Virus record (IMG/VR): IMGVR_UViG_3300020465_001196
Source: a virus
Lineage: Duplodnaviria; Caudoviricetes
Direction: 5' to 3' (one strand)
Length of the DNA stretch: 64,000 bases
Part shown: in pieces, positions 4,445 to 58,739 of the stretch
Position numbering within the stretch: position 1 is the first letter of the stretch
Layout: each line of letters begins with the position of its first letter
Made by a program: the position numbers and the translations under genes
The notes under the pieces: model-generated
What the model was told of the DNA's origin: nothing
Databases searched by the model: none
The model's input: only the letters and a program-made list of their open reading frames with translations

Positions 4445-4533
4445 TTTTTACCTCAATAATAACTGCTATGTTATTAAATATTTATGTACGAAATAATGTA
4501 CGTATATAATTATCTAATATAAATAACTTTGTT

Positions 4534-4805: not shown

Positions 4806-5369
4806 ATGAGTAAAAAATATGATCAGTATACAGCGGCGGAAAGAATAGACGCCCATTTACACGACAATGATATTCATTATCTGACAGGTGAAATTACTCA
4901 AAGCAACGTTGAAGATGCAATCAAATGGATACTATCTTGTAACCTAAACAAAAAACCAAAGAAAACATTAAAGTTATATATTAATACAGTTGGTGGAGAT
5001 TTATACGAAGCATTTGCACTAATTGATGTTATGAAAAACAGTTATCATCATATATCTACTATTGGAATTGGTGCTGTTATGAGTGCAGGATTTTTAATTT
5101 TTGCAAGTGGTAAGCAAGGTGAAAGATATATTGCTAAAAATACCGGAATATTAAACCACCAACATTCAGATGCTATGGAATCAAAAATGCACGATATGAG
5201 ATCACAGATGAAAGAAAATAACAACTGTGAATTAAGATGTTTAAACATATTACGTGAAGCAACTGGGTTTAGTTTGGCCGATGTACGTAAAAAACTTAAT
5301 ACTCCAAGTGATCAATATTTTACTGCTAGACAGTTAGTTGATTTAAAAATAGCAGACCATATTTTATAA
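4806..5369 (+). CDS. clpP: ATP-dependent Clp protease proteolytic subunit
   Basis: LYINTVGG, GAVMSAG (catalytic Ser), ILNHQ (catalytic His), DQYFTA...IADHIL. Confidence 0.85.
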   Translation: MSKKYDQYTAAERIDAHLHDNDIHYLTGEITQSNVEDAIKWILSCNLNKKPKKTLKLYINTVGGDLYEAFALIDVMKNSYHHISTIGIGAVMSAGFLIFASGKQGERYIAKNTGILNHQHSDAMESKMHDMRSQMKENNNCELRCLNILREATGFSLADVRKKLNTPSDQYFTARQLVDLKIADHIL

Positions 5370-5395: not shown

Positions 5396-6097
5396 GTGTA
5401 TAATACTTGTATGACCAATAGAATCAATGTGATTACTTCTGGGTGTAGTTTCACATATAACAGTGAAATGACCTGGGTAGGTAAATTAGAAGAATTGTGG
5501 AACGTACACAATGTGGCTTCTTGTGCCGCAGGCCAAGATTATATTTCAAGACAAGCAATTGCAAAATGTGAAGAACTACAAGGTCAAAAAAATATTTTAA
5601 TTTGTCAATGGAGTGGAATTCATAGACGTGCATTTTTAACTGAACATGATTTTGGTTTTGAACAAGGTTCTCCATATATGGATAAAACACAAAATGGTTA
5701 TTGGGTAAAGAATGGTGGTAATGGTGTAGACAGTCAAGTATCTGAAAATGATTTAGCAGAAAAACATTTGTTTGAACCTTACAGAAAAATTTATAACGAA
5801 CAACAAGGTGCTATAGAAAGTTTAGAACACATAGCAAGAACACAATGGTATTGTAAACTTAATAGAATACCAATGTTAAACTTTTGGTGGAAAGATGAAT
5901 TATCAAATATCGATATAGATGTATCATTAGTTGATTGGAAACAATTTTGGTTTTACAAGAAAACAGGTGGTATGGCAGAATGGTGTGTAGATGAAATGTG
6001 GGATCCTGGATTTGCTGACGGCAATCATCCTACAAAAGAACACCATGATAAATTTGCAGAAGATGTTATTATTCCTTGGATAGGAGATAATATATGA
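5396..6097 (+). CDS. SGNH/GDSL-like hydrolase or acyltransferase
   Basis: N-terminal TSGCSFT block and C-terminal DGNHP block; true start may be 5411. Confidence 0.55.
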   Translation: MYNTCMTNRINVITSGCSFTYNSEMTWVGKLEELWNVHNVASCAAGQDYISRQAIAKCEELQGQKNILICQWSGIHRRAFLTEHDFGFEQGSPYMDKTQNGYWVKNGGNGVDSQVSENDLAEKHLFEPYRKIYNEQQGAIESLEHIARTQWYCKLNRIPMLNFWWKDELSNIDIDVSLVDWKQFWFYKKTGGMAEWCVDEMWDPGFADGNHPTKEHHDKFAEDVIIPWIGDNI

Positions 6098-6651
6098 TAG
6101 ATTCATTTGGACATGGTGGAAAATTATATTCAAACAAAGATTGGAATTATATTGCTGTTCCTAAATGTGCATCATCAGTTATAATAGATACTTTAAAAAT
6201 GAAAGAAGTAAAAAACAAAAAAAATAATAAGTCTTTTACTTTTATAAGATTACCATTTGCTCGTTTAAAAAGTTATTTGTATCAAGAAAAATGTTTTACA
6301 GAAAAACTAACTGAAGAAAAAATAAGAAGTATAATTAATAACTTTGACCGCTTTAACGAACATTGTGTACCTTACAGTCTTTACATAAAAAAAGATAACT
6401 TTGACTTTATTGGAACATTAGAAAACTTTTACGAAGATTGGAAAAACATTTCTGATATTCACATTGAGCATATGACCGAAAGACAAAATTTTGATAACAA
6501 AGTACAAAAAGATCCAAAAACTAAAAAGTTTGTTAAAGTAGATAATAAAAAAATAGAAGATATGCATAACACAGTAATTAAAAAATATTCAAATGAATTA
6601 AGTCGTTTATATTCAGGTGACTTTGCATTATACAGTAAGGTAACAAAATGA
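6094..6651 (+). CDS. Sulfotransferase family 2-like protein
   Basis: YIAVPKCASS (5'-PSB-like), FTFIRLPFARLKSY (3'-PB-like), DFIGTLENFYEDW. Confidence 0.65.
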   Translation: MIDSFGHGGKLYSNKDWNYIAVPKCASSVIIDTLKMKEVKNKKNNKSFTFIRLPFARLKSYLYQEKCFTEKLTEEKIRSIINNFDRFNEHCVPYSLYIKKDNFDFIGTLENFYEDWKNISDIHIEHMTERQNFDNKVQKDPKTKKFVKVDNKKIEDMHNTVIKKYSNELSRLYSGDFALYSKVTK

Positions 6652-7796
6652 CTCCATTAACTATTGGACAATATATTAAAGAAGAGTCAATAAGTCAATT
6701 TATTAAAAGCAATGAACATTATGAACTAGCCTTTTATGGAAGTGATGTTGATTATCCTTTTATACATCATGACGTTTGGTATCATGGAGTAATGAATGCT
6801 ATCAAATTTAGTAAAAAACTAGCAATATGTTATATGCGTGAACCTGCGTTTGCTCATGATGAACACGTTGAAAAACAAATACTATTGGGACATGATTTAG
6901 TTAAAGAAGGTGTACCTGCACATAAAATATATTACTTTTATTCAACTGACTTAGGTAAAGAAACGCATGAAGTTATAGCAAAGAAACATAATTTAAAACC
7001 AAAAGGATTTAATATTATTACGTTTCCTTATTATGAAGTTGACGCTTATAAAAAAATATTAGAACAAAAAGTATGCGAACACGTTCCTCCATTTGAAGCA
7101 AAACGTAAAGTTGCTGTTAGATCATTTTTGTCATTAAATGGTAAGCCAGATAAGTTTATGAGATTAAGACAAATTGTTTTATATTGGCAACGTAGATTAA
7201 TGAACAATGGATTAATTACATTAACCAGAACTGAAGAAGATATTGAAAAATATCCTAACTTAGAAGATTATTATAACGAAGTCAAAGACTTAATTAGTAA
7301 AACAGACTACGATAAATTATGTAAGCATTGGCCACATTCATTAGATGAACACAATGTTAAACAAGGATTATATGGAAAACACTTTAGTGGTTATCCTTTT
7401 GATAAAAAATTATATTTAGATACTTACTTTAGTGTAGTATCAGAAACACATAGTGGTGCACATAATTGTAATCCACAATTCTTTCCAACAGAAAAAATAT
7501 ATAAAGCAATAATAAACTGTCATCCATTTATTGCATTATCAACACAAAACTTTTTACATAATTTAAAAGAACAAGGATATAAATCTTTTAGTCCATTTAT
7601 AAACGAAGAGTACGATCAAGAACCAGATGCATATAAAAGAATGAACCTAGCAATTGATCAAGTTGAAAAATTATGCAAGGACGGTGTGCCAATAGATATG
7701 TTTTCAAATGCAATTTACAATTACACTAACTTAATTAACAGAGCTGAATCAAGTATAAAATTAGTAGAAGGAATATTTAATGAGAGTACTGTATAA
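6648..7796 (+). CDS. GT10/fucosyltransferase-like glycosyltransferase
   Basis: C-terminal YFSVVSET...FFPTEKIYKAI...HPFI resembles the GT10 E...TEK...P motif; SLNGK..R motif shared with paralogs. Confidence 0.45.
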   Translation: MTPLTIGQYIKEESISQFIKSNEHYELAFYGSDVDYPFIHHDVWYHGVMNAIKFSKKLAICYMREPAFAHDEHVEKQILLGHDLVKEGVPAHKIYYFYSTDLGKETHEVIAKKHNLKPKGFNIITFPYYEVDAYKKILEQKVCEHVPPFEAKRKVAVRSFLSLNGKPDKFMRLRQIVLYWQRRLMNNGLITLTRTEEDIEKYPNLEDYYNEVKDLISKTDYDKLCKHWPHSLDEHNVKQGLYGKHFSGYPFDKKLYLDTYFSVVSETHSGAHNCNPQFFPTEKIYKAIINCHPFIALSTQNFLHNLKEQGYKSFSPFINEEYDQEPDAYKRMNLAIDQVEKLCKDGVPIDMFSNAIYNYTNLINRAESSIKLVEGIFNESTV

Positions 7797-8808
7797 CAGT
7801 TATCCTTATTGGAGATATACTCCAAGTCAAAACGGAGAACGTGAAGGATTGTTTAGTGGACATCCTTTACCATTAATGGTTACACATGAAAACATATATA
7901 ACAAAGCTAAAAAAGATAACGAAGAATGTAAATTTATTATTGAAGAATTAACAGAAGCTGATATTCCTGGACCATCGTTAGATGACGGACTTCCTGTTTT
8001 TGAAATGTTACATAAGATACTTAACGAAAGTAATATTGATAAAAATGATATTCATATGATTATGCCAAGTATTAATTTTGATCAGCAATATATTACTTGG
8101 TGTAAAAAAAATAATCACAAAGAAATTATAAAGCATAGACACACATACCCATTTTATTTTTTAGATGTACAAAAGAAATATGAATACGTAAACAACTTTA
8201 ATCATAATAGAATTTGTCATATGATGAGTTTAAATGGTGCTATGAAACCTAAACGTGTAGAGTTTGTAAATTTTTGTAAAGAAAACAGACTAATGGACAA
8301 TTATATTAGTTTAGTTGGAAATTATAATACAACCGGAGAAGAAGTTGAACCTGTAATATTAGATACTAATATAAACAATTTAAAAGAAGATGATAAACCT
8401 GTTCCATTAGATATGATGTATCAATCTTGGTTAAATGTTATTAATGAAACACACGAAGATGATACAATATTCTTTACTGAGAAATCATGGAAGCCAATAT
8501 TAAATTTACAATTGTTTTTATATTATGGAGTTGGTAATCCATCTGCATACTATAAAGCATTAGAATCATTTGGATTTAAGTTGTATGATGAAATATTTGA
8601 TTACAATAATGATCCTAAAAAAGAAATATTAAAATTTTGTTCAACACCTTTGCCACTTATACAGTCTGAAATAGTTGAGCAAGTTAAAGATAAAATGTTA
8701 TATAATCAACGTTTAGCTCTTGACACAGATTGGAGAGACGTATATCATAAGAAAATATACAAAGGAATATATGGAAAAGAAAAAGTATCTAATAACGTCT
8801 GGATGTAG
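7780..8808 (+). CDS. GT10-like glycosyltransferase paralog
   Basis: SLNGAMKPKR and WLNVINET...FFTEKSWKPI motifs. Confidence 0.45.
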   Translation: MRVLYNSYPYWRYTPSQNGEREGLFSGHPLPLMVTHENIYNKAKKDNEECKFIIEELTEADIPGPSLDDGLPVFEMLHKILNESNIDKNDIHMIMPSINFDQQYITWCKKNNHKEIIKHRHTYPFYFLDVQKKYEYVNNFNHNRICHMMSLNGAMKPKRVEFVNFCKENRLMDNYISLVGNYNTTGEEVEPVILDTNINNLKEDDKPVPLDMMYQSWLNVINETHEDDTIFFTEKSWKPILNLQLFLYYGVGNPSAYYKALESFGFKLYDEIFDYNNDPKKEILKFCSTPLPLIQSEIVEQVKDKMLYNQRLALDTDWRDVYHKKIYKGIYGKEKVSNNVWM

Positions 8809-9589
8809 TTTTACAGCTCATGCTGTTGAATCAAACATTGCTTGGCCAAATCATATTAAAGATTGGCAAGTAATTAACTGTGCCGAAATGGCAAGTAGTA
8901 ACGCACTTATAAGTCGTAACTTAATAGCAAACATTCCACATTACTTAGATAAAGATCCAACTGTGGCTGTGATGTGGTCAAACCCAAATCGTTTTGAATT
9001 GTTTTATAATCGAGAAGCAAACAACTATGATAAAATTTATAGAGATATGAAAGGCCAAGGAGGATTTCAAAATCAACCATTAACAGGTAAATGGCAAACA
9101 CATGACTCTTCCAATTGGGCAAAGAGCGGAGGAGGATTTGGTCATTGGGAATTTGATAGCAAAGAATTAAACCAAGATATGAAATTATATCTTACTAACT
9201 TTCATCACGAAGAATTACAATTTGTGCAAACACTAGAACATATATTAAGAATACAATGGTACTGTAAAGCACACAATTTAAAATTAATTAATATGTGTTG
9301 GCAAGATATATTCACAGGACAAAATAGTCCGGACGGAAATAATTCAACACAGAGTGGTCAATTAATAATAAACAAATATGAAAATGCTATACACCTTTGG
9401 GAATTAGTTGATTGGTCAACTTGGTGGTTTCATCACAGTCATAAACAAGAATGGTCACGCCAATATGGTGGGCTAAAAGAATGGTGTATTGATAACGGAC
9501 ATGAACAGTTTCCAGGAAGTCATCCTACAACAGAAGCACAAAAAGATTTTGCTTCTACAATTGTAGAAAGGTTAATTAATGAAACGTAA
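8771..9589 (+). CDS. SGNH/GDSL-like protein
   Basis: TSGCSFT and GSHPT; start set at 8771 after SD-like AAGGA (ORF track begins 8720). Confidence 0.55.
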   Translation: MEKKKYLITSGCSFTAHAVESNIAWPNHIKDWQVINCAEMASSNALISRNLIANIPHYLDKDPTVAVMWSNPNRFELFYNREANNYDKIYRDMKGQGGFQNQPLTGKWQTHDSSNWAKSGGGFGHWEFDSKELNQDMKLYLTNFHHEELQFVQTLEHILRIQWYCKAHNLKLINMCWQDIFTGQNSPDGNNSTQSGQLIINKYENAIHLWELVDWSTWWFHHSHKQEWSRQYGGLKEWCIDNGHEQFPGSHPTTEAQKDFASTIVERLINET

Positions 9590-10016
9590 AATATTAATAA
9601 TGGGTTTACCAGGATCAGGTAAAACAACATTAGCAAAGCATTTGGCTCCATTGTTTAATGCAGTATTACTAAATGCAGATACAGTAAGAAAAGAAGCAAA
9701 CGATTGGGACTTTAGTCTAGAAGGTAGAGATAGACAAGCATTAAGAATGTGGACATTGGCCCAAGAAGCATTAGATGATGGTAAAACTGTTGTTGCCGAC
9801 TTTGTTTGTCCTACTGTAAAAACAAGAAAAGAATTTAATGCAGATTATACTATATGGATGAACACCATCGAAGAATCAGAATATCAAGATACAAATGATA
9901 TGTTTGAAAGACCAATTGTTGCTAATGGCGATAGTGCAGATATTGTTATTACACAGAAAGATGCAGAAACTTGGGCATATACAATCTTTCAAATAGTTGC
10001 AGGAGAAGTTGTATGA
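9579..10016 (+). CDS. cysC: Adenylylsulfate (APS) kinase-like, short form
   Basis: ILIMGLPGSGKTTLA P-loop, LNADTVR, DWDFSLEGRDRQALRM, VADFVCP, FERP. Confidence 0.7.
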   Translation: MKRKILIMGLPGSGKTTLAKHLAPLFNAVLLNADTVRKEANDWDFSLEGRDRQALRMWTLAQEALDDGKTVVADFVCPTVKTRKEFNADYTIWMNTIEESEYQDTNDMFERPIVANGDSADIVITQKDAETWAYTIFQIVAGEVV

Positions 10017-10327
10017 AAAAACTTTGGGAAAAATATAAAGCACACGATAAAAAAGTAAAAGAAGCACAGGCAAATTTTAAAGTGTCTGATATAAAGAACA
10101 AATACTTTAGAGCATTAATGTGGATCTTTATGTTGAGATTTGTATGGGATATTACTACACTATTTGAAAAGTATTTGCCTATGCCTAAAGTATACAAAGT
10201 ATTAGGCTTAGGTTGGACAAAATTAGGTTACTATGTGTTTTGGTTATTATGGTTTATATTCTTAGGAGTATTGTTATATAACATACTAGGCGAACAATTA
10301 TTTGATCAGGTAATAAACGAACTATGA
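10013..10327 (+). CDS. Hypothetical membrane protein
   Basis: Two hydrophobic segments; start 10013 after GGAG. Confidence 0.55.
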   Translation: MKKLWEKYKAHDKKVKEAQANFKVSDIKNKYFRALMWIFMLRFVWDITTLFEKYLPMPKVYKVLGLGWTKLGYYVFWLLWFIFLGVLLYNILGEQLFDQVINEL

Positions 10328-11094
10328 AAAAAATATTAACTACAGGATGTTCATTTACTCACGCACCAAACAGTTGGGCAAATTATTTGAAAGAAGAATA
10401 TGATTTAGTTAATGTTGCTGAAGGCGGTGCTGGTAATGAAATGAATTTAAGAAATGCCAGCCTAGAAGTATTATCAGAATCATACTCTCATGTTATTGCA
10501 CAAATTAGTGGTATAAACAGATTTGAAATTATATATGATGAAAAAATGGAATCAAAAAATAATTATATACTTCCTAAAGAATATTACACTTGGATTAAAA
10601 GTACAGGAGATCAACGTTGGTGGCGAGGACTTGAACAAAACAATTTTGATTTATTTCGAACAAGTAAACATATCAGTGATAGACTAGATGCGTATATAAA
10701 ATATACACATTCGGATGTACAGCAAATATTAAGAACACTTATGAACATTGTGTTTTTACAAAAACTATGTAAAGAAAAAAATATTAACTGCTTGTTCTTT
10801 TGTTGGAAAAATGAATTTGCAATATATGAAAAACAAATTAATGAATCTGCAGAACTTACAAATTGGTGGGATCAAATTGATTGGTCAAAATTTTGGTTCC
10901 ATGGAGCAATGGGTGGACTTGCAGAATGGGGAATAGCAAATGGTTTTACTGGAGCATTACATGAAGATAAAATAAATGTTCCAGCAAAAGGTTGGCATGA
11001 TGTTGACGGGCAAAAAATTATGATTGGTCATCCGTCGACAGACTGCCACTGGAACTTTGCAAAGAAAGTAATTAAACCTTGGATTGAACAATGA
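10324..11094 (+). CDS. SGNH/GDSL-like protein
   Basis: TTGCSFT, GGAGN, IGHPS. Confidence 0.55.
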   Translation: MKKILTTGCSFTHAPNSWANYLKEEYDLVNVAEGGAGNEMNLRNASLEVLSESYSHVIAQISGINRFEIIYDEKMESKNNYILPKEYYTWIKSTGDQRWWRGLEQNNFDLFRTSKHISDRLDAYIKYTHSDVQQILRTLMNIVFLQKLCKEKNINCLFFCWKNEFAIYEKQINESAELTNWWDQIDWSKFWFHGAMGGLAEWGIANGFTGALHEDKINVPAKGWHDVDGQKIMIGHPSTDCHWNFAKKVIKPWIEQ

Positions 11095-11321
11095 CAAAAA
11101 CATACATACACGTTAACCAACATAAAATTAGGAGTAATAAAAAACATGGGACTAATGAACCTGTTATCACTATTAAACGTGGAAGTAGGAATGACTATTG
11201 TCATGCCGTTAAAATATTGGGCGATAGTACTGTTCGTTATGGTGGCAATGATAAGCCTATCCTTAGTTGCGGTGCTAGAGTTGTTATAGAAACTGAAGCG
11301 GAAGTTAAAATTGTAGAATGA
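11091..11321 (+). CDS. Conserved phage hypothetical protein
   Basis: Coupled ORF; IHVNQHKIRSNKK...LSCGARVVIET pattern recalled from marine T4-like phages. Confidence 0.6.
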   Translation: MTKTYIHVNQHKIRSNKKHGTNEPVITIKRGSRNDYCHAVKILGDSTVRYGGNDKPILSCGARVVIETEAEVKIVE

Positions 11322-12637
11322 TCAATTTATTATATCAAACTTGGATTAATGAAGTACCTATTTCAAATAGTGTACCTCCACACAAACGCAAAATAAATTC
11401 TAATGGTTACGGAAATGTTAAATGTAATTACATAGAAAAAATGTTTGAAGTTGAAGATATTAAATGGAATTCAAAAAACATAGACACAGTTAATCCAAAC
11501 GAAATTACATATTATCATATACAACCAGAATGGATTGACTTGGCTTTCTTTTATGAAAATGTATTTCATCATATTGATGACAATGTGTTAAACTTGTTAC
11601 GTGATCCAAATAATAAAGTAAGAGTATTAATATGGTTTCCAAGTGAAGGCTTTCATTTATCAATGCCAAGATTCTTAGATGATATAACTTGGAGTATTAC
11701 TGATAAAGGAATTCCTTTTGAAAAAGTATATATGGTTTATGGTGATTTAAATATCGAACAAAATTATAAAACATACATGAAAGTAAAACGTTTTGGTAAT
11801 GATCAAAAAATTAATATGTATCCTTTTAATATATTTGAAACAAACTACAGACATGAATGCGATGTAAGATACTTTATGAATCATAAACATAAAGGTGTAT
11901 CTAATGAATTAATTGATGCTTCTGAACTATCAAAAGATCATATACGTTCACACAAATTTTTATGTAAGAATGCAAATCCAAGAGAACACAGAATTTATAT
12001 ATTAAGCGAGTTATATCGTAAAGGCTATCAAGATCAAACTATACATAGTTTTTTAAATAGATATTTTACACCAGACAGTATTGGTAATTTAAGAAGTTAC
12101 CTAACACAAGAAGATATGCATTTAGCAAAGACTATTGACAGTTATGGTAAGCAATGGCTAAAAGAAAAAACACCAATAATACTTGATCATAATGCTGATA
12201 CGATTGGTGATGATATGAACCAACGTATACTAACTAAAGAACATTTTACTGAAACATATTTTAGTTTTGTAACTGAAACTGTATTTGAATCACAACCAGG
12301 TTCTCCATTATTTGTTACTGAAAAAACATATATGCCTTTTGTAAATTATCATCCTTTTATTATTACAAGTGGTACTGGGTGTTTACAATATTTAAAGGAC
12401 CAAGGATACGAAACGTTTCCAGAAATATTTGATGAGTCATATGACAATATTAATAACAGGGCAGAAAGATTAAAATCTATAATGAATAATATCGAACGTA
12501 TATGCAAAATGGATATTAAAGAATTGCATAAACTATATTGGAGTGTTTGGGATAAACTAGAACACAATAGAAATCATTTTTTTCAAAGGAGTCACGCTAA
12601 TCGTTGGACTAAATTATTGGAATTTTTATCCAGATAA
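11318..12637 (+). CDS. GT10-like glycosyltransferase paralog
   Basis: FLCKNANPREHR and YFSFVTET...FVTEKTYMPF...HPFI. Confidence 0.45.
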   Translation: MINLLYQTWINEVPISNSVPPHKRKINSNGYGNVKCNYIEKMFEVEDIKWNSKNIDTVNPNEITYYHIQPEWIDLAFFYENVFHHIDDNVLNLLRDPNNKVRVLIWFPSEGFHLSMPRFLDDITWSITDKGIPFEKVYMVYGDLNIEQNYKTYMKVKRFGNDQKINMYPFNIFETNYRHECDVRYFMNHKHKGVSNELIDASELSKDHIRSHKFLCKNANPREHRIYILSELYRKGYQDQTIHSFLNRYFTPDSIGNLRSYLTQEDMHLAKTIDSYGKQWLKEKTPIILDHNADTIGDDMNQRILTKEHFTETYFSFVTETVFESQPGSPLFVTEKTYMPFVNYHPFIITSGTGCLQYLKDQGYETFPEIFDESYDNINNRAERLKSIMNNIERICKMDIKELHKLYWSVWDKLEHNRNHFFQRSHANRWTKLLEFLSR

Positions 12638-12648
12638 GTATATACATC

Positions 12649-13263
12649 ATGTCAAAGAAAACAGAAAAAGAACTAAAAAGAGTCAGAGGAAGAATGTTAA
12701 TTTCAATGCCACACATGGCTGACCCACGATTCTATAAAACTACATTAGCAGTTATACGGCACGATGCCAGTGGTGCAAGTGCTATTATTTTTAACAAGCC
12801 ATCTAAAAGTTTAATCTTTAGTGAAGTATGTTTAGACATGGGATTAAAATGTCATCCTAAATGGAAAAATCAACCAATATATTATGGCGGCCCAATTAAC
12901 ACATCACAAATATTTGTTATACATAGTAGCGACTATCATGATAAAGATACAATGAACGTTGCTCCAAGTATATCACTAACTTCAAATAAAGCAATAATAC
13001 AAACCATTGCAGAAGACAAAGGTCCTAATTTATTTAAAGTTGCAGTTGGTTGTGCAATATGGAGTCCAGATCAACTTGATGATGAAATAGAAGGAGCATG
13101 GCCACGTGATGGAGTTATCAGTTGGTTGCATACAGATTTAAATCCAGCTAACGTATACTCTACAAAAGATAATTGGAATGACGCTATAGAATTATACAGC
13201 CAGTCAATGGCTTCAAACATATTAAAAAGGTTAGAAGTAGAAGATGCCAAATATAATTTCTAA
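12649..13263 (+). CDS. YqgE/AlgH (UPF0301) family protein
   Basis: LISMPHMADPRF, IIFNKP, YYGGP, FVIHS, GCAIWSPDQLDDEI. Confidence 0.8.
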   Translation: MSKKTEKELKRVRGRMLISMPHMADPRFYKTTLAVIRHDASGASAIIFNKPSKSLIFSEVCLDMGLKCHPKWKNQPIYYGGPINTSQIFVIHSSDYHDKDTMNVAPSISLTSNKAIIQTIAEDKGPNLFKVAVGCAIWSPDQLDDEIEGAWPRDGVISWLHTDLNPANVYSTKDNWNDAIELYSQSMASNILKRLEVEDAKYNF

Positions 13264-14272
13264 AAATAATAAAAAATATCTTGTTTATGATTTTGATTGT
13301 GGCCGAGAAAAAGGTTTTGGTGACCTGTTGCAAACAAAAGACTTATGGATAAAATCAAAAGATAAACCATACGTTGTTATTTCAAATGCATATGAAGGTG
13401 AAATACATCACAAACAAGCTGATCAATTTTTAGAAAGACTTCATGCTGAACTACGAGGTTATGAACATGATAAAATTGTATTAGTAATGGCAGATGCTAA
13501 TTTAGAAAAAAATTACAAACGTTGGTATAAAAATTACAAAGAGCCAAGAGTAATTGGGCATTGTGTATACTATCCATATACATTATTAAAAAGATCTATC
13601 GAAAGTTTTAACAAATATAAAATTAATAAAAAGTATATGACTAGGAAGCCAAAGTATTTTATTTGTATGAATGGTGCCGCAAAGCCTCACAGATTTCATA
13701 TGGTAGAAACATTATATTCAAACGACTGGCATCACAAAGGTCATATTACATATCTAAACAGATATGGTGAAAACACAAAACATATGGCTAATGAAAACTT
13801 TCAAGGACAAACATTAAAATTAGACTTTGATGCTAAAACTATTGACGAAGGTGATAATCAAGAAATACTTCCACCAGAATATAGAGAAGCAATATTTGAT
13901 GTTGTAACTGAAAGTATTGTTAGTGATAGTAGTGTATTCATAACTGAAAAAACTTGGAAACCAATATTACAAAAAGTTCCTTTTTTACCATTAGGTTCAA
14001 AAAAAATGTGTAAACATTTAGAAGAATTTTTTGGAATTAAATTGTATAACAATCTATTCAATTATAGTTTTGATTATATTGATTATCCAAATAGACTACA
14101 CAGAATCAAAGAAGATAACTTAAGAAGGTTAATCAATACTCCTTTAGCGGACCTTAACGATATAATTAATTCAGATAAAATGCAAAAACAATTATCATAC
14201 AATCAAACGCAATTAATTAATTTTAAAATTCCAATGCTAATAGATGCTATTGATAAAGAGGTCAATGGATAA
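13244..14272 (+). CDS. GT10-like glycosyltransferase paralog
   Basis: FICMNGAAKPHR and FDVVTES...FITEKTWKPI...VPF. Confidence 0.45.
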   Translation: MPNIISKNNKKYLVYDFDCGREKGFGDLLQTKDLWIKSKDKPYVVISNAYEGEIHHKQADQFLERLHAELRGYEHDKIVLVMADANLEKNYKRWYKNYKEPRVIGHCVYYPYTLLKRSIESFNKYKINKKYMTRKPKYFICMNGAAKPHRFHMVETLYSNDWHHKGHITYLNRYGENTKHMANENFQGQTLKLDFDAKTIDEGDNQEILPPEYREAIFDVVTESIVSDSSVFITEKTWKPILQKVPFLPLGSKKMCKHLEEFFGIKLYNNLFNYSFDYIDYPNRLHRIKEDNLRRLINTPLADLNDIINSDKMQKQLSYNQTQLINFKIPMLIDAIDKEVNG

Positions 14273-15494
14273 AGATACTGCATTAAAAAAATCAAAACGT
14301 TTCTGTATGTTACCTTGGACACATTTACACTCATGGCCAGATGGCAGAGTGTTACCATGTTGTATGGCCCCAATGGACGAAATACTTGGTAACTTAAAAG
14401 ATCAATCATTTGAAGATATTTGGAATTCAGATAAGTTAAAGAAAATGCGTGTAGCAATGTTAAAAGATAAACCAACAAAAGAATGCACTCGTTGTTATTC
14501 TATGGAATCAAGTGGATTGAATACAACAAGAACTTGGGCTAATGAAACATTTGAAAATCATTTTGATAAAGTAGGAACTACACAAGAAGATGGTACCGTT
14601 GATAAAATTAACTTACCATATATTGATTTTAGATTTTCAAATTTATGTAACTTTAAATGTAGAACTTGTGGACCAGATTTATCATCAAGCTGGTACGAAG
14701 ATAATATTAAACTGTATGGTCCATTAAAACATCCAAAAATTATAAGGCCATATAAAGATGAAGAAACATTTTGGCAAAAAGTCGAACCATACATGGACGG
14801 ATTAGAAGAAATATATTTTGCAGGTGGTGAACCACTTATCATGGAAGAACATTATAGAATTCTTAAAAAACTTGATGAACGTAAAATGTATCACGTAAGA
14901 TTAAAATACAACACAAACTTTTCACAAATGACATTTAAAAAATTAGATGTTATGGAAATATGGAATCGTTTTGAATCTGTTAAAATAGGTGCTTCGTTAG
15001 ATGGCATGGGTAAACGTGGAGAATACTTACGTAAAGGACAATCATGGGAACAAGTTGAAGAAAATAGAAAACGTATGTTTGATATTTGTCCAGATGTATA
15101 TGTGTTCCTTGCAACTTGTTTAAATGTATATAATAGTTTCCATGTACCAGACTTTCATCATGAATGGATACAAAAAGGTTGGATTGACGCTGTTGGTGGC
15201 AGTTTGATTAATCCGTTGTTTGTACCAGAAGAACTTTCTATACAAATACTCCCAATGGAAATGAAAAAACGATTAGAAGAAAGATATGTGCAAGAACAAG
15301 AATGGTTTGACAAGTATACGCAAAATAAAGAAAAACGTTATGATAAACTAATTCATTTTATGTATGAAAAAGATTCATCACATCTTATTCCAAAGTTTTG
15401 GGAAAGAACAAATATGGTCGATAAGTTACGTAACGAAGATGTTATTTCATTGTTCCCAGAATTGATGGACCTAAAAAATCATCAACCAGTTTAG
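14265..15494 (+). CDS. Radical SAM protein with N-terminal SPASM/twitch-like Cys cluster
   Basis: CMLPW...PCC...CTRC, then CNFKCRTC (CX3CX2C), FAGGEP, YNTN; start 14265 after GAGG. Confidence 0.85.
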   Translation: MDKDTALKKSKRFCMLPWTHLHSWPDGRVLPCCMAPMDEILGNLKDQSFEDIWNSDKLKKMRVAMLKDKPTKECTRCYSMESSGLNTTRTWANETFENHFDKVGTTQEDGTVDKINLPYIDFRFSNLCNFKCRTCGPDLSSSWYEDNIKLYGPLKHPKIIRPYKDEETFWQKVEPYMDGLEEIYFAGGEPLIMEEHYRILKKLDERKMYHVRLKYNTNFSQMTFKKLDVMEIWNRFESVKIGASLDGMGKRGEYLRKGQSWEQVEENRKRMFDICPDVYVFLATCLNVYNSFHVPDFHHEWIQKGWIDAVGGSLINPLFVPEELSIQILPMEMKKRLEERYVQEQEWFDKYTQNKEKRYDKLIHFMYEKDSSHLIPKFWERTNMVDKLRNEDVISLFPELMDLKNHQPV

Positions 15495-16278
15495 CATTTC
15501 CTTCATTGCTAAAATGATACCCGTTATCTATTTGATAAGATTCAAAATTCTTTTTACCAAATAAACCTTCTATAGATGGAAAAGGTCTAAGCTCAAAAAG
15601 ATTTGAACGAAATTCTGGTTTATACTTTAACCAATAAAATGGTAATACATCTTTACCTTTGGATTGCAAGTAATCTATTAAACTATATGTTTGTGAATAA
15701 TAAAAATATTTTTGATAATCTGTTTCACTTTGTTGTTCATACCAAGTTGCAATATAACTTTTAAAATTTGTTAAAGACAATTGTGGAGTAACTTTATCTT
15801 TTATTTTATCATTATATAATTTTTCTATAAATGATTCCCATCTCTTTTCTTTATGATGTTCACTTGCACTTGCTCCAATTCCTTGACTTAAATGTATTAT
15901 GTGACCACTTAAATCCCATATTTTATAATAGCTTCGATCTCCTTTATCAACTTCATCAAAACCAAAACGTATTCTTTTTTCTTTTTCTTCAATTGGATCT
16001 AACGCAAGTATTGATCTATCATGTGTTGTAATTTGAAATACAAACATATCTGGATCAAACTCTTTTAAAAGATAGTCAGCAACTAAATGACAATACTCAA
16101 CTCCTGCACCTGGTCTACCAGCTTGTATTATATCAGCTTTTATTCCATTATTACCTAAGTAAGTCATTAAATGATAAGGGTAAGTTTCATTATCTGGCAT
16201 ATCACCATTACCTGTTGAACTTAATCCTCTAGTCCAACTGCAACCTAAACAGGCTATCTTTAAATTTTTATTTGGCAT
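15442..16278 (-). CDS. SGNH/GDSL-like protein
   Basis: CLGCSWT, GRPGAG, DNGYHFS. Confidence 0.5.
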   Translation of the reverse strand: MPNKNLKIACLGCSWTRGLSSTGNGDMPDNETYPYHLMTYLGNNGIKADIIQAGRPGAGVEYCHLVADYLLKEFDPDMFVFQITTHDRSILALDPIEEKEKRIRFGFDEVDKGDRSYYKIWDLSGHIIHLSQGIGASASEHHKEKRWESFIEKLYNDKIKDKVTPQLSLTNFKSYIATWYEQQSETDYQKYFYYSQTYSLIDYLQSKGKDVLPFYWLKYKPEFRSNLFELRPFPSIEGLFGKKNFESYQIDNGYHFSNEGNAKLVDDFLGPSILGTMK

Positions 16279-16669
16279 ATTCTTTTACTTTATGAAACAT
16301 ATTATACGCACCATTTCTTCTGTTAGGTGACAAAATATTTATTAACTGTAGACTTTCAATAACGTTATCAATATCTGTGTTTTGTATTTCTTTTTTAGTT
16401 ACATCGCTAAAGATATCTGCAACCATTGTTACTATTCCTTTAGTAATATGTGCATCTGAATCTGCCATAAATGATATTGTACTTTCGTTATATTTTGGAA
16501 CTAACCATACTTGACTCATACATCCGTGAACTTTAAATGTATCTAATCTATACTCTTCTGACATAGAACTTTTACTACCTAATGTTATTAGATATTGATA
16601 TTTGTCCATATTATTATCAAATAATTCTAAATCTGTTTTATATTTTTCTAATTTTTCTTGTATAGACAT
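16268..16669 (-). CDS. sufE: SufE family sulfur-acceptor protein
   Basis: KYQYLITLG, KVHGCMSQVWL (active Cys), ADSDAHITKG, LSPNRRNG. Confidence 0.85.
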   Translation of the reverse strand: MSIQEKLEKYKTDLELFDNNMDKYQYLITLGSKSSMSEEYRLDTFKVHGCMSQVWLVPKYNESTISFMADSDAHITKGIVTMVADIFSDVTKKEIQNTDIDNVIESLQLINILSPNRRNGAYNMFHKVKEYAK

Positions 16670-16701
16670 TTTATCCTTTTTGTGCTATGTTAAATATAGT
16701 T

Positions 16702-17883
16702 ATGCACACACCAAAATCATTTTGTATACTACCATGGATATCATTAGAGTCCACAGCCGCAGGGTGGGTTAAACCTTGCTGTATGTATAATAATAACATG
16801 ACTGATGAAAACAATCAACCATTCAATTTACAAAAAAATACATTTAATGATGCTTGGAATAGTGATTATTATAGAAACCTAAGACAAGAATTCTTAGATG
16901 GTAAAATGCCAAAAGGTTGTACAAAATGTTGGAGTGAAGAAGCAAGTGGTAAAGTATCTAAACGTATTAGAGATAATCAAAAATACAAACATCATATTAC
17001 TGAAGAAATAATACAGGAACCTAAATTAAAATATTTAGATCTAAAACTAGGAAACATTTGTAATTTAAAATGTCGTATATGTGGAACACATTCAAGTTCA
17101 AAATGGATAGCAGAACAAAAGCACTATGACAAGCAAGACAATCACGAAGAAGAACACACACGTCATGGCTGGCCTGAAACTAACAAAAAGTTTTGGGAAG
17201 AACTTGAAGAACTGTTGCCAACATTAGAATACATCGACTTTACTGGTGGTGAACCATTTATGATTAAAGAACAATTTGAACTATTAAAGTTTTGTGTTGA
17301 AAAGGGTTATGCAAAAGATATTGGCATACACTATAACACAAATGGAACACAATTACCAAATGATGCATTACAAAACATATGGCCGCACTTTAAATCAGTT
17401 GACGTGCAGTTTTCAATTGATGGAATAGAAAATCATTTTGAATATCAAAGACATCCTGCTAAATGGAAAAATGCTTTACACGTTATAAATGAATTTAAGA
17501 ATAAACAAAGCAAAAAGTTTACTGTTGGTATATGTCATACAATTAACATCTTTAACGTGCTATACATACCCAAATTTTTAACATGGGCAAAAGAATTTGG
17601 TATAAGTGTATACTTGAACAGTTTACATTATCCATCGCATTATAATATTAAGTGTTTACCAAATGAGGCTAAAAGAAACATTACTAATAGGTTACAAGAA
17701 AACAATAACAAAGACATACAAACGTTCATTGATTATATGAATCAAGATGATAATGGATATCATGATTGGATGAAATTTGTACATTGGACTATGCGTGTTG
17801 ATAAATTTAGAAGCGAAAACTTTGAACAAGTTTTTCCAGAACTAGCAGAAGCAACTGAATATAAATATTATAAAAGGAAATAA
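16702..17883 (+). CDS. Radical SAM protein with N-terminal SPASM/twitch-like Cys cluster
   Basis: CILPW...PCC...CTKC, CNLKCRIC, FTGGEP, YNTNG; start 16702 chosen (ORF track 16687). Confidence 0.85.
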   Translation: MHTPKSFCILPWISLESTAAGWVKPCCMYNNNMTDENNQPFNLQKNTFNDAWNSDYYRNLRQEFLDGKMPKGCTKCWSEEASGKVSKRIRDNQKYKHHITEEIIQEPKLKYLDLKLGNICNLKCRICGTHSSSKWIAEQKHYDKQDNHEEEHTRHGWPETNKKFWEELEELLPTLEYIDFTGGEPFMIKEQFELLKFCVEKGYAKDIGIHYNTNGTQLPNDALQNIWPHFKSVDVQFSIDGIENHFEYQRHPAKWKNALHVINEFKNKQSKKFTVGICHTINIFNVLYIPKFLTWAKEFGISVYLNSLHYPSHYNIKCLPNEAKRNITNRLQENNNKDIQTFIDYMNQDDNGYHDWMKFVHWTMRVDKFRSENFEQVFPELAEATEYKYYKRK

Positions 17884-37730: not shown

Positions 37731-37799
37731 TTAGAGGTTAAGTTAGCGATAATTCACATGACATTTACATTAAATATTATAGCAGAGAGAGGTTGTATC

Positions 37800-38402
37800 G
37801 TGGATAAAATTATTTTAACAGACATAGACGGTGTTGTTTTTGATTGGCATACAGCATTCGTTAAATGGATGGAACTTCAAGGTTATTCGTCAACAGGTGT
37901 GATGCATCATGATGCAGAAATACACAACGAGTTTGGAATTGCTTTTCAAGAAGGTCTTATTAAAAGAGAAGAGTTCAATTCTTCTATGGCGTGTTCTATT
38001 TTAGAACCATTACGCGGCGCCGAGATTTGGATTCCTAAACTTAAAGAAGAAGGTTTTAAATTTATTGCTATTACTTCTTTAAGTGATAAACCAATCGCTC
38101 AATACTATCGTTATTTAAATTTAGAAGATTACTTTGATGTTGAAACTTTTTTAGATGTTAGATGTTTACCTGCAGGTGCAGATAAAACAGAAGCACTAGA
38201 AGAATTCAAAGATAGTGCTTTACTTTACATTGATGATAGAACATTAAATATTGAAATAGCATTAAAACAAAATCTTAATGCTATACTAATGAAACATCCT
38301 TATAACATTCAATACTCAAACCCAAAAGTTAAATTAGTTAGCACTTGGGAAGATATTTACAATTACATTCAAAAAGTATACAACGTAAAACCAAATAAAT
38401 AA
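37800..38402 (+). CDS. HAD-family 5'-nucleotidase-like phosphatase
   Basis: ILTDIDGVVFDW, AITS, YIDDR; GTG start after GAGG (ORF track 37758). Confidence 0.75.
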   Translation: MDKIILTDIDGVVFDWHTAFVKWMELQGYSSTGVMHHDAEIHNEFGIAFQEGLIKREEFNSSMACSILEPLRGAEIWIPKLKEEGFKFIAITSLSDKPIAQYYRYLNLEDYFDVETFLDVRCLPAGADKTEALEEFKDSALLYIDDRTLNIEIALKQNLNAILMKHPYNIQYSNPKVKLVSTWEDIYNYIQKVYNVKPNK

Positions 38403-38406
38403 AAAT

Positions 38407-39015
38407 ATGTTACACAAACATATTTTTCACGTTCCAGAATTAGATCTTAATGATCAACAAAGATCAATCATTAAAGAAAGATATTATAAGTTCAAAGAAG
38501 CCAACCCAGGTGTTGGCTTCGAGAGCGTCGAGAGAGAAGAAGGTGGAAATAATCCAGGAAACATAGCAACAACAAGTTCAGATGGTGAACCTGTGTTTAA
38601 GTATATTACAAGTGGTATAGATTTATTAGAAGGTGTATATACTGACAAACAAATACAGCAAATTAAAAGTTTATGTTCTCCATTAGACAATATGAATGCT
38701 GATGAGCCTTTTGATTTTTTAGAAACACATGGCAAAGTATTAAAACATATTGATGATATGCGATATGGTGTTATTACAGTACCTATTATAGAACTAGGAC
38801 ATACATTAGAGTTTTATGCTAGTGATGATGCTTCTGTAACTGATGATGTTGTTGAAACAATGAAGTATGATAATAAAACTTACATATTCAATCCTAAAAT
38901 ACCGCATGGAGTAAGAACATCAGATCATATGAGATTGTTTTGGCAAGGTAGCATTTTTAATAAAAACTTTGAACAAATAAAACAAGAATATGAACAAGGT
39001 AAATTGTTTAGATAA
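38407..39015 (+). CDS. 2OG-Fe(II) oxygenase-like protein
   Basis: KHID...PHGV...R pattern; FHVPELDL N-terminus shared with 51101. Confidence 0.5.
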   Translation: MLHKHIFHVPELDLNDQQRSIIKERYYKFKEANPGVGFESVEREEGGNNPGNIATTSSDGEPVFKYITSGIDLLEGVYTDKQIQQIKSLCSPLDNMNADEPFDFLETHGKVLKHIDDMRYGVITVPIIELGHTLEFYASDDASVTDDVVETMKYDNKTYIFNPKIPHGVRTSDHMRLFWQGSIFNKNFEQIKQEYEQGKLFR

Positions 39016-39023
39016 GTATTAAT

Positions 39024-39818
39024 ATGGCACATTCAAAAATAGGATTATATGGAGACAGTTTTGTTGAAGTATGGCCGGAAGAAAAAAAGAAATATAAAGA
39101 AGAAGAACATTATTCATTAACACCGTGGCCAAAAATAGTTGCGGACAAATTTAATTTAGAAATTGTTCATTCAGGTAAAGGTGGAACATCATATTGGGAT
39201 ATTCCATTACAACAGTTTTCATTAGATAATGTTCCTGATATATTAATATTTTCTTGGACCTCTAGTGCTAGACTTTATAACAAACAAGGAATCCAATTAC
39301 ATCCTAACCCAGGTAAAATTTGGTGGCAAGACGGTGATGTTAAAGATAGTTATGTAGATGCAAGTAAACAATATTTCAAATACATTCATGATACTGAAAA
39401 AGAAATAGCAGAGTACAAGGCTTGTTTATATTGGTTTGATGAAACTATATTAAGTCAAATACCATCAGATAGAAAAATAATTCACTTGTGGTCATTTGGA
39501 CATGATAACACAGACACTAAATTAGGTGGAACATATCATCCTGGCAATTTAACTTATTTGCACAATTGGAAAAATGGTTGCGAAATAAGACCAAGTTGTA
39601 TGAGTATTGCTTTGATGGATGGTGCAGGGTTTGATGATGTTGATCCATTTGAAAATCATATGAATACACAAACTAAACATAATCTTATGGCAGACTTTAT
39701 AATGCATTCTTTAATTGATACTAATGTTAACGGAGGATATGATAGAGAAGCATTAAATGACTATTCAGAAAACGTAATTAAAAATCACATTTATTCTACA
39801 ATGCCCCCTTCTAAATAA
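39024..39818 (+). CDS. SGNH/GDSL-like protein
   Basis: LYGDSFV, GKGGTS, ENHMN. Confidence 0.55.
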   Translation: MAHSKIGLYGDSFVEVWPEEKKKYKEEEHYSLTPWPKIVADKFNLEIVHSGKGGTSYWDIPLQQFSLDNVPDILIFSWTSSARLYNKQGIQLHPNPGKIWWQDGDVKDSYVDASKQYFKYIHDTEKEIAEYKACLYWFDETILSQIPSDRKIIHLWSFGHDNTDTKLGGTYHPGNLTYLHNWKNGCEIRPSCMSIALMDGAGFDDVDPFENHMNTQTKHNLMADFIMHSLIDTNVNGGYDREALNDYSENVIKNHIYSTMPPSK

Positions 39819-39851
39819 CAAATAAATATACTATAACAGGAGTCAATTAAA

Positions 39852-56940: not shown

Positions 56941-56973
56941 TTTTACTCCTTTTTCTTTATTATAATATATATC

Positions 56974-57171: not shown

Positions 57172-57172
57172 A

Positions 57173-57364: not shown

Positions 57365-57416
57365 TTGTTTGTTTTCCTTTGTTGTTGTTTAATTGTATGA
57401 CAATATTCTATTTTTG

Positions 57417-58730: not shown

Positions 58731-58739
58731 TGTATATCC

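Follow-up and report, generated by a model that had tools for sequence, protein, structure and literature searches.

The DNA analysed here (64,000 nucleotides, hereafter the window) comes from an uncultured marine jumbo myovirus whose baseplate proteins are closest to those of the jumbo phages Atu_ph07, SCTP-2 and PA5oct. An enzyme island at 5396-17883 adjoins the baseplate genes, and the enzyme operons of the window lie among baseplate and fibre genes (Table 1). The near-continuous coupled run described in an earlier note on this DNA is real: by ORF coordinates it extends on the plus strand from 4534 to 15494, and neighbouring genes in it either overlap by 4-29 nt or are separated by no more than 26 nt. 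The gene order that follows, an inverted SGNH and SufE pair and then a second radical SAM gene, is also as that note had it, and its SufE and AlgH/YqgE labels correspond to clear Pfam matches. The island enzymes all lack hydrophobic segments and are soluble; the small hydrophobic protein encoded among them shows no conservation in relatives. A T4-type late-promoter-like motif stands at the head of the operon, and a second one, CTAAATA, lies at 4780, 19 nt upstream of ClpP. The motif (A/C/T)TAAATA is concentrated 12.6-fold just upstream of gene starts, with sites that include gp25, the island head, the glycosyltransferase at 54197 and the radical SAM gene at 58730. Judging by this motif, the island is probably expressed late.

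Table 1. Features of the island and of the other enzyme blocks in the window
Feature	Position	Strand	Remarks
T4-type late-promoter-like motif	4518..4525	+	TATAAATA; head of plus-strand operon
Small basic Gly/Lys-rich ORF, 70 aa	4534..4746	+	kept in three closest relatives
ClpP-family serine protease	4806..5369	+	Pfam CLP_protease E 2.2e-27
SGNH-fold paralog 1 (family A)	5396..6097	+	likely start ATG 5411
Sulfotransfer_2-like sulfotransferase, 185 aa	6094..6651	+	5'-PSB Lys and 3'-PB Arg/Ser motifs
GT-B paralog 1 (family B)	6648..7796	+	
GT-B paralog 2 (family B)	7780..8808	+	
SGNH-fold paralog 2 (family A)	8720..9589	+	likely start ATG 8771
APS-kinase-like P-loop kinase, 145 aa	9579..10016	+	P-loop; LNAD replaces LDGD; C-terminal half shortened
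Small hydrophobic protein	10013..10327	+	about 2 predicted membrane helices
SGNH-fold paralog 3 (family A)	10324..11094	+	member modelled
76-aa protein	11091..11321	+	phrog_8676
GT-B paralog 3 (family B)	11318..12637	+	member modelled
AlgH/YqgE (DUF179) protein	12649..13263	+	Pfam E 8.4e-28
GT-B paralog 4 (family B)	13244..14272	+	overlaps next radical SAM gene start by 29 nt
N-twitch radical SAM (NF033640)	14244..15494	+	radical SAM family; 56-95% identity to orthologs
SGNH-like paralog 4	15442..16278	-	divergent (GCSWT ... H); joins family A more weakly
SufE sulfur-acceptor protein	16268..16669	-	Pfam E 4e-34
N-twitch radical SAM (NF033640)	16687..17883	+	radical SAM family
Second enzyme block	37758..43184	+	HAD-like, two function-unknown ORFs, QueC-like PP-loop (weak), two radical SAMs
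Radical SAM without twitch domain	40580..41905	+	
N-twitch radical SAM	41898..43184	+	radical SAM family
Coupled pair	51661..54197	-	GT-B paralog 5 (family B, 52821-54197), then N-twitch radical SAM (radical SAM family, 51661-52821); ATAAATA at 54220 heads the pair
Third stretch	55630..59626	-	oxygenase, N-twitch radical SAM, weak methyltransferase
Asp/Asn beta-hydroxylase-type oxygenase	55630..56208	-	
N-twitch radical SAM	57417..58730	-	radical SAM family
Methyltransferase	58940..59626	-	weak match

What are these enzymes? Self-BLASTP of the window ORFs defined the SGNH-like (A), glycosyltransferase-like (B) and radical SAM paralog families marked in the table. The island members of family B had been called GT10-like. 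A structure model of one of them (11318-12637) has a confident GT-B fold (pLDDT 91.7), and ten positions, among them N218, R225, D290, E320, E335 and K336, are invariant in 37 family members, all five window paralogs included. On this modelling, family B consists of predicted GT-B enzymes with catalytic-type residues, and 'GT10-like' holds for fold and motif resemblance only. GT10 fucosyltransferases, such as H. pylori alpha1,3-FucT (5zoi; Z 10.9) and human FUT9 (8d0o; Z 10.5), have the GT-B fold in common with it, and a conserved acidic-basic T-E-K motif in its C-terminal domain, with the invariant Arg upstream, presumably resembles the GDP-fucose-binding motif of GT10. The GT10 assignment itself fails: none of the 37 members matches PF00852 at E<=1, and family B matches no glycosyltransferase HMM and nothing in a PDB sequence search. 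Other viral proteins fuse the family B fold to NDP-sugar epimerase/dehydratase, UDP-glucose/GDP-mannose dehydrogenase or methyltransferase domains.

The best and seventh structural matches of the model are also phage GT-B enzymes, T4 beta-glucosyltransferase (1c3j; Z 11.4) and alpha-glucosyltransferase (1y6f; Z 10.3), at about 8-10% identity. Could the island then serve the hypermodification of DNA (or tRNA), with a base adduct built by the radical SAM, kinase and QueC-like proteins and the GT-B enzymes glycosylating the modified bases? The window does encode a P-loop kinase and QueC-like PP-loop proteins, and the kinase has homologs in nucleotide-metabolism regions of Sano-like phages. However, the structural scores tie among many GT-B families, T4 DNA glucosyltransferases included, and those T4 enzymes act on hydroxymethylcytosine DNA and not late, whereas a complete 328-kb relative of this phage has no ThyA-type pyrimidine hydroxymethylase and the operons lie in the structural region with late-type promoters at their heads. 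For SGNH and carbohydrate-type sulfotransferases a role in DNA modification would be unprecedented, and what adjoins the module in relatives is a set of NDP-sugar enzymes that belong to the deoxy-amino-sugar type. Of the three targets proposed earlier this is the least favoured, and we consider it highly unlikely.

Both island ORFs called radical SAM are confirmed as such by full-length matches to the N-terminal-twitch family NF033640 (N_Twi_rSAM), at 410.7 and 393.1 bits far above the cut-off of 170; the CxxxCxxC motif and the N-terminal Cys cluster are kept, and with them all eight Cys ligands. A full-text literature search for NF033640 returned no paper; the family is catalogued only. The Vibrio phages K566/K567 have NF033640 genes as well. 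Peptide maturation is the commonest role of SPASM/twitch radical SAMs, and the best PDB profile match here is SkfB (E 2.7e-7, core only), so a RiPP-like maturation deserves consideration, with a structural protein or a small phage peptide as the substrate for crosslinking or epimerisation by these enzymes and the GT-like proteins as scaffolds. The small conserved ORFs of the operon (4534-4746 and 11091-11321) would suit it, but they are not conserved together with the core; RRE and leader-peptide features did not turn up, the invariant residues of GT type point to active transferases and the context is consistently one of nucleotide-sugar enzymes. We give peptide maturation the slimmest chance of all the readings.

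Three island paralogs form family A, and the inverted fourth is more divergent. A model of one member (10324-11094; pLDDT 89.1) has the SGNH fold by structural match, and all four keep Ser, Gly, Asn and His (Ser10 and His236 are invariant in family A, with the block II Gly and block III Asn also kept), which bears out their earlier SGNH-like label. PatB (7tjb, a peptidoglycan O-acetyltransferase) and TesA (1jrl) have the same fold and signature. Unlike such SGNH/GDSL acyl enzymes, family A has GCSFT as block I and lacks the triad Asp (there is none three residues upstream of the His), and no paralog matches Pfam GDSL; unlike periplasmic PatB, it is predicted to be cytoplasmic.

The sulfotransferase call is supported through homologs. 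ORF 6094-6651 itself has no Pfam match, but 10 of 11 aligned family members match PF03567 (Sulfotransfer_2; best 8.9e-22), and its PAPS-binding motifs are conserved, the 5'-phosphosulfate and 3'-phosphate motifs aligning with those of heparan sulfate 2-O-sulfotransferase (3f5f/4ndz), from which it differs in being much shorter and below Pfam detection. Does the neighbouring kinase make the PAPS donor, as was claimed? It is an APS-kinase-like P-loop kinase whose match to APS kinase is confined to the N-terminal half. Its nearest relatives occur in Sano-like phages of Xylella, Stenotrophomonas and Xanthomonas that lack sulfotransferases, where they adjoin genes for MazG and topoisomerase, and the PAPS role is therefore unproven. 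ATP sulfurylase is absent from the complete relative.

Islands like this one occur widely among aquatic phages. The earlier note had seen its proposal as vulnerable to wrong or non-catalytic folds and to a lack of co-conservation; the folds are as predicted and retain residues of catalytic type, and glycosyltransferase and radical SAM genes pair in 45 of 53 de-duplicated viral loci (34 of the 37 with at least 18 kb fetched). The coupling through the 29-nt overlap of GT-B paralog 4 and its radical SAM gene is kept in 8 related loci. SGNH recurs in 18 of the 53 loci, radical SAM arrays reach 7 genes, and the complete relative carries 14 N-twitch radical SAM genes and 6 family B glycosyltransferases. 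In one cassette swap between close relatives, the glycosyltransferase is 86% identical but the radical SAM gene that follows it has been exchanged. The sulfotransferase (3 clusters), the kinase (2), AlgH and SufE are found only in the closest relatives and are therefore accessories; sulfation drops out of the conserved set. The families do recur within the window, at 38-43 kb and at 49-63 kb; of the matches in these parts, those to QueC-like, HAD and methyltransferase proteins are weak. A glutaredoxin gene lies elsewhere in the window, as do genes for a polysaccharide lyase and a cell-wall hydrolase.

Apart from a truncated SDR-like ORF (19016-19570), the window has no nucleotide-sugar synthesis gene. 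In relatives the module is flanked by a GDP-mannose pyrophosphorylase/isomerase-type gene, epimerase/dehydratase, DegT aminotransferase and carbamoyltransferase; in a Bdellovibrio MAG the flanking genes are four epimerase/dehydratases, DegT, a GDSL gene and genes of the TPP-dependent E1/transketolase-like kind. Pathways to aminoglycoside and nucleoside antibiotics are known to use twitch radical SAMs, and cytosylglucuronate decarboxylase is a weak profile match here. Is the product then a small molecule that stays free (a modified nucleotide sugar, say, or an oligosaccharide or a natural product of aminoglycoside-like type), with no macromolecule decorated? The clusters look rich in tailoring enzymes (many radical SAMs, plus carbamoyltransferase, aminotransferase and TPP enzymes in relatives), but exporter, resistance and regulator genes are absent, what a lytic phage would gain from a late diffusible product is not obvious, and the island sits inside structural modules. 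We judge this improbable.

From the gene content, folds, conserved residues, co-conservation and context, we infer a late, cytoplasmic phage pathway that would assemble a short glycan and then tailor it chemically (probability roughly 0.55); its catalytic steps, timing and acceptor are our reading. The earlier idea of a kit for building and tailoring carbohydrate thus survives in its GT-B, SGNH, Sulfotransfer_2-type and twitch radical SAM parts. Family B would transfer sugars from nucleotide-sugar donors. The N-twitch radical SAMs, each usually coupled to a glycosyltransferase, may perform radical chemistry on the sugar or sugar nucleotide, for which epimerisation, dehydration/deoxygenation and C-alkylation are precedented. 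The SGNH paralogs could attach or remove O-acyl groups, the sulfotransferase might add PAPS-derived sulfate, and SufE and glutaredoxin may assist in loading the Fe-S enzymes, which are numerous. The weakest link of the proposal is a possible increase of PAPS through the APS-kinase-like protein.

Where would such a glycan go? The enzymes are soluble, lipid-carrier and export genes are lacking, the setting is baseplate and fibre and the promoters are late-type; therefore the phage's own virion proteins are the likeliest acceptor, a tentative choice that falls somewhat short of even odds. The pathway might instead act at the cytoplasmic face and modify glycan intermediates of the host's LPS, capsule or S-layer, blocking superinfection or stopping progeny from adsorbing again to cells that are lysing. 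For the host recognition clusters of pelagimyophages, glycosyltransferases have been read this way (PMC7029224), surface-polysaccharide loci typically contain families of the GT, SGNH and sulfotransferase kinds, and the lyase and hydrolase of the window would fit. Yet the complete relative lacks both an initiating phosphoglycosyl transferase and a flippase (no Bac_transf, WecA-type or Wzx genes), the island enzymes are all soluble, late-type promoters suit exclusion, usually an early function, poorly, and 14 radical SAM paralogs seem extravagant for receptor masking. Host-surface remodelling ranks second among the targets and is, in our view, rather unlikely.

Decoration of virion proteins by the phage itself would have precedents. 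Phage-encoded glycosyltransferases glycosylate mycobacteriophage virions, and giant viruses carry glycan coats. Both are virus-encoded, host-independent, cytoplasmic and directed at structural proteins, as the pathway proposed here from genes would be; they use known glycosyltransferase families and are not known to have radical SAM arrays. The island type was not undescribed, as first thought, but already published without function (PMC7029224; PMC5332604). Zaragoza-Solas et al. (2020) described a hypervariable fibre-region island with glycosyltransferase and radical SAM cassettes in pelagimyophages and cyanomyophages (PMC7029224). Like that host recognition cluster, this island is large, variable, placed within the structural region with fibre genes intermixed, and subject to cassette gain, loss or swap between close relatives. 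Unlike those phages, this one is no pelagimyophage, given its Atu_ph07-, SCTP-2- and PA5oct-like baseplate and 328-kb relative, and that paper names GT8-type LPS enzymes, not the GT-B family, N-twitch radical SAMs, SGNH or sulfotransferase found here. Nishimura et al. (2017) reported T4-like marine viral genomes with up to 12 radical SAM genes each, Fe-S assembly/handling genes, ClpP and glutaredoxin, and read the radical SAM genes as Fe-S related auxiliary metabolism, with no glycosyltransferase link or product proposed (PMC5332604). The window, with 6 radical SAM genes, SufE, ClpP and glutaredoxin, and the complete relative, with 14 plus 7 radical SAM genes, are comparable with those genomes.

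Glycan tailoring is the best supported reading of the island, the enzyme gene run at 5396-17883 beside the baseplate genes, and we give it a probability of roughly 0.55. How are its genes arranged? The near-continuous, coupled run described in the earlier note is real: a plus-strand block at 4534-15494 opens directly opposite gp6/gp25, and its junctions are overlaps of 4-29 nt or gaps of at most 26 nt. An inverted gene pair and one further gene follow it and complete the island. The window is AT-rich, with a G+C of about 30% in the island; gp6/gp25 occupy 6-4444, and the fibre genes (44002-49269) lie between enzyme blocks. Self-BLASTP of the window resolves three paralog families among the ORFs: family A (SGNH fold), with three members and a divergent fourth; family B (GT-B glycosyltransferase-like, referred to here as GT), with four island members and a fifth at 52821-54197; and a radical SAM family, with two island members and three others at 41898-43184, 51661-52821 and 57417-58730. 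Identity between window paralogs is only 22-30%, so these are old, separately conserved genes rather than recent copies.

Genes that border and close the island, in window coordinates
Feature	Position	Strand
gp6-like baseplate wedge gene	6-3959	minus
gp25	3959-4444	minus
Inverted gene pair after the plus-strand block	15442-16278 and 16268-16669	minus
Radical SAM gene closing the island	16687-17883	plus

Several neighbouring genes deserve mention in their own right. The first gene after the TATAAATA motif encodes a 70-aa Gly/Lys-rich basic protein (4534-4746, plus strand), found at 62-71% in the three closest relatives. Just past the island lies a 103-aa SET-domain protein (18592-18903, plus; E 2.9e-11), 79-89% conserved in several related loci, and further on a full-length ribosomal protein bL12 (19883-20260, minus; Ribosomal_L12 at E 3.5e-22 and the N-terminal dimerisation domain). 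A polysaccharide lyase (25347-26336, minus; E 2.9e-21) and a cell-wall hydrolase (26899-27573, minus; E 1.7e-17) share a neighbouring minus-strand block and possibly provide envelope-degrading functions (25347-27573). At its right-hand end, the third enzyme block carries a glutaredoxin (62392-62724, minus; E 4.3e-16) and a fatty-acid-desaturase-like fragment (63465-63911, minus; E 9e-8).

What kind of phage carries the island? None of 50,697 phage records was matched when the island was compared with them by megablast. For the baseplate proteins, the nearest counterparts belong to the jumbo phages Atu_ph07, SCTP-2 and PA5oct, which does not place the phage in the pelagimyophage/cyanomyophage lineage. 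Its nearest relative is a complete IMG/VR genome of 328,149 bp with terminal repeats, which encodes 14 NF033640 genes above cut-off, seven weaker radical SAM matches and six family B genes. Marine metagenomes from at least 11 studies contain the stretch itself. Contigs of 148 and 183 kb from a MAG labelled Haliscomenobacter (L084/L085/L104-L106) carry 12 NF033640 genes. An initial reading of these loci as bacterial context was dropped: ThyX, SHMT, a series of ORFs of 46-79 aa and a 4907-aa protein give them a viral look, and the bacterial MAG may have taken in contigs of a jumbo phage during binning.

The window ORFs of families A and B have no match in Pfam, PHROGs or NCBIfam, and their identification comes from structure. 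A family B model built with a 37-member alignment (pLDDT 91.7) shows two Rossmann-like domains with an interdomain cleft, the arrangement of GT-B, and the 83 PDB structures matching it at E<=1e-3 are all GT-B glycosyltransferases. Exhaustive structure alignment gave whole-length VIA Z values of at most 11.4, the best being T4 beta-glucosyltransferase (Z 11.4), followed by Helicobacter pylori alpha1,3-fucosyltransferase (10.9), FUT9 (10.5, rmsd 4.0) and T4 alpha-glucosyltransferase (10.3); on a predicted model, these top scores are ties. Ten positions are invariant in 37/37 sequences, every window paralog included, among them R225 and the Glu-Lys pair E335, K336 (C-terminal domain), and E320 likewise. 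These four residues entered the comparison with GT10, whose structures rank second and sixth when compared at whole-fold level. Are the four island proteins then GT10-like enzymes, as first proposed? The GT-B fold and the invariant catalytic-type residues stand, but GT10 membership does not: the GT10 HMM PF00852 matches 0 of the 37 members at E<=1, and the label therefore describes a resemblance. A Pfam scan of the 37 members returned no GT family, PDB sequence and profile searches with the GT gave chance matches only (thymidylate synthase, sphingomyelinase), and tblastn of the GT against phage records gave no match.

In other viral proteins the family B fold is fused to an NDP-sugar epimerase/dehydratase, a UDP-glucose/GDP-mannose dehydrogenase domain or a methyltransferase, and family B is therefore tied to nucleotide-sugar chemistry. 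The gene context of the relatives also points to sugars. There the module adjoins a gene of the nucleotidyltransferase/mannose-6-phosphate isomerase type; neighbours in relatives also include an NDP-sugar epimerase/dehydratase, a DegT aminotransferase and a carbamoyltransferase; and those in a Bdellovibrio MAG are four epimerase/dehydratases, DegT, TPP-dependent E1/transketolase-like genes and a GDSL protein.

For family A, the SGNH-like assignment is supported by the fold and by the block I Ser, block II Gly, block III Asn and block V His, all present, with the triad Asp missing. The model (pLDDT 89.1) has an SGNH fold matched by PatB, TesA and other GDSL esterases, and by AFDB SGNH clusters at E 3e-9. 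Ser10 of the GCSFT motif is invariant, as is His236, and the block II Gly (G35/G37) nearly so; the ISGINR block has an invariant R66 and a nearly invariant G63, while the block III Asn is the consensus residue, its conservation judged by eye. No Asp stands three residues before the His (DxxH), where the consensus reads M-I-G-H-P-S, implying a Ser-His dyad. The two island radical SAM enzymes are full-length members of NF033640 (N_Twi_rSAM, the N-terminal twitch radical SAM family), at 410.7 and 393.1 bits against a cut-off of 170, and C13, C31, C32, C78 and C81 together with C125, C129 and C132 (CxxxCxxC) are invariant in all five window paralogs. NF033640 genes are also carried by cultured phages, namely Vibrio phages K566/K567 and Ralstonia phage RsoM2USA. 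The radical SAM assignments of the earlier note are borne out, as are SufE and AlgH/YqgE, both clear Pfam assignments (SufE: PF02657, E 4e-34, profile positions 3-120 of 121). A complex prediction for GT 13244-14272 with radical SAM 14244-15494 scored 0.00, a value that gives no verdict either way. Full-text literature searches on N-terminal twitch/SPASM or NF033640 found no paper, and a search on jumbo phage and radical SAM gave nothing relevant.

Do these families travel together? A pattern scan finds family B in at least 509 IMG/VR loci; 83 loci were analysed (79 from that scan and the four loci L001-L004), which collapse to 53 distinct clusters. An N-twitch radical SAM lies within the fetched flank in 45/53 clusters, and in 34 of the 37 for which at least 18 kb was fetched; family A occurs in 18/53. 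Sulfotransferase (3), kinase (2), AlgH (3) and SufE (3) are rare among the 53. The expected co-conservation across related phages therefore holds for GT and radical SAM but not for the sulfotransferase and kinase, and the locus separates a core (GT and radical SAM pairs, often with SGNH) from strain accessories (sulfotransferase, kinase, AlgH, SufE). Radical SAM genes form tandem arrays of up to seven. The overlap of GT 13244 with radical SAM 14244 is kept in eight related loci, in which the GT falls to 35-38% identity and the radical SAM still shows 56-65%; this compact, conserved, translationally coupled pair (13244-15494) would be useful for biochemical reconstitution. Between the window and the 328-kb relative (L027), GT 52821-54197 is 86% identical, but the radical SAM behind it differs (window 51661-52821, minus strand, versus L027:11380-12618). 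The relative's gene is 44% identical to window 41898-43184, no match between it and the adjacent window gene was reported, and the difference is a cassette replacement by a different paralog.

Among the accessories, the sulfotransferase ORF (6094-6651) has no Pfam match at E<=1, PF03567 (Sulfotransfer_2) included, and its proposed identity is supported through its homologs and its kept PAPS motifs. An exhaustive search found 14 relatives, and ten homologs found at E 1.8e-39 to 5e-4 were aligned with it; PF03567 matches 10 of these 11 aligned members, namely the ten homologs (best 8.9e-22), and is carried by 56 of the 100 nearest Atlas clusters. K24, R52, S60 and H90 are invariant, and the motifs align to the PAPS-binding loops (5'-PSB Lys, 3'-PB Arg/Ser) of heparan sulfate 2-O-sulfotransferase. 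The ORF is accepted as a predicted small sulfotransferase; tblastn with it against phage records gave no match.

Is the kinase (9579-10016) an APS kinase that makes the PAPS donor? This part of the earlier note is now doubtful, as a full-length HMM match, the LDGD motif and lid, and linkage to a sulfotransferase are all lacking. Only about residues 5-86 of its 145 aa match APS kinase; PF01583 scores 35.1 bits (cut-off 21.1) over profile positions 5-92 of 152 only, with AAA_33 scoring higher, and TIGR00455 scores 25.6, far under its cut-off of 138.7. The protein reads LNAD where APS kinase has LDGD, its lid region is missing, and only its residues 6-83 can be aligned with the 186-aa APS kinase 2yvu, whose C-terminal half is longer by about 40-50 residues. 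Sano-like siphophages of Xylella, Stenotrophomonas and Xanthomonas supply its nearest relatives, at about 50% identity; there the gene lies beside MazG and topoisomerase genes, and no sulfotransferase is present. The nearest cultured-phage homolog, a 245-aa 'kinase' of Xylella phage Sano (15406-16143, L107) whose N-terminal half is matched, has MazG, cysteine dioxygenase and topoisomerase genes as neighbours, a placement implying that unrelated phages widely share this short kinase family. Across the 53 clusters, kinase and sulfotransferase occur together only in the closest relative, and ATP sulfurylase was not found in the complete relative. As a separate observation, 6230 is joined to 10324, with 16-17 other letters between, in one metatranscriptome and one metagenome contig, and this joint may stem from a strain without the sulfotransferase end, two GTs, one SGNH and the kinase; a deletion variant was not called, the anchor on one side being just 19-20 nt and too weak.

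Where would the enzymes act, and on what? No island enzyme has a hydrophobic segment. In the complete relative, initiating phosphoglycosyl transferases and a Wzx flippase were not found, nor was a ThyA-type hydroxymethylase. The motif (A/C/T)TAAATA is rarer than expected overall, and 17 of its 77 copies (22%) fall in the 41-nt intervals that precede gene starts (odds ratio 12.6), versus 4-13% for control motifs of the same composition. Among its sites are those ahead of gp25, the island (4518 and 4780), GT 54197, radical SAM 58730 and the fibre gene 47418; a scan for sigma70-type promoters and terminators did not rise above shuffles. We infer that the island is probably co-expressed late with the structural genes, and for this reason virion proteins are favoured as the putative glycan acceptor. 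Short pieces identical to island genes occur in metatranscriptome contigs of two studies, RNA libraries in which DNA carry-over is possible and gaps are uninformative, so that these pieces are no proof of transcription. Among the fibre genes, a fibre-like protein (47917-49269, minus) has an Mtd_N (major tropism determinant N-terminal) domain (E 2.2e-13), and the adjoining gene, with TATAAATA ahead of it at 47522, encodes a fibre protein of 1138 aa.

A more detailed scheme can be drawn, which we regard as speculative and rather improbable as a whole. Each cassette of GT and N-twitch radical SAM would add one sugar and rewrite it by radical chemistry; with the SGNH and sulfotransferase accessories, this would yield, in the cytoplasm and without lipid carriers, a chemically new glycan that bears sulfate and acyl groups and is attached to the phage's own baseplate/fibre proteins, and cassette swaps between strains would change the virion coat. 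Why does this matter? In jumbo phages that abound in oceans and lakes, such islands span tens of kilobases, and the complete relative devotes about 21 genes to radical SAM enzymes. We know of no reaction for either the family B GT-B proteins or NF033640. Identifying the product would define new radical sugar chemistry, and could bring to light a glycan coat on virions or an alteration of the host surface, with consequences for host range, for immunity to other phages and for the stability of particles at sea.

The earlier note put the island forward as a candidate for an undescribed system, but the island type is already published: glycosyltransferases and radical SAM cassettes are found in the host recognition clusters of pelagimyophages and cyanomyophages (PMC7029224). 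Radical SAM genes, up to 12 of them, are also on record in T4-like marine viral genomes, together with Fe-S helpers, ClpP and glutaredoxin (PMC5332604). Neither paper tests function or names the families described here. Like a host recognition cluster, the window has a variable island in the structural/fibre region, with GT and radical SAM cassettes and a cassette swap relative to the 328-kb genome; unlike the phages with those clusters, the window phage is closest to jumbo phages. What is new is the jumbo-phage lineage, the recognition of the GT and SGNH families by their folds, the split between core and accessories, the doubt over the kinase and the recognition of the sulfotransferase as a rare accessory.
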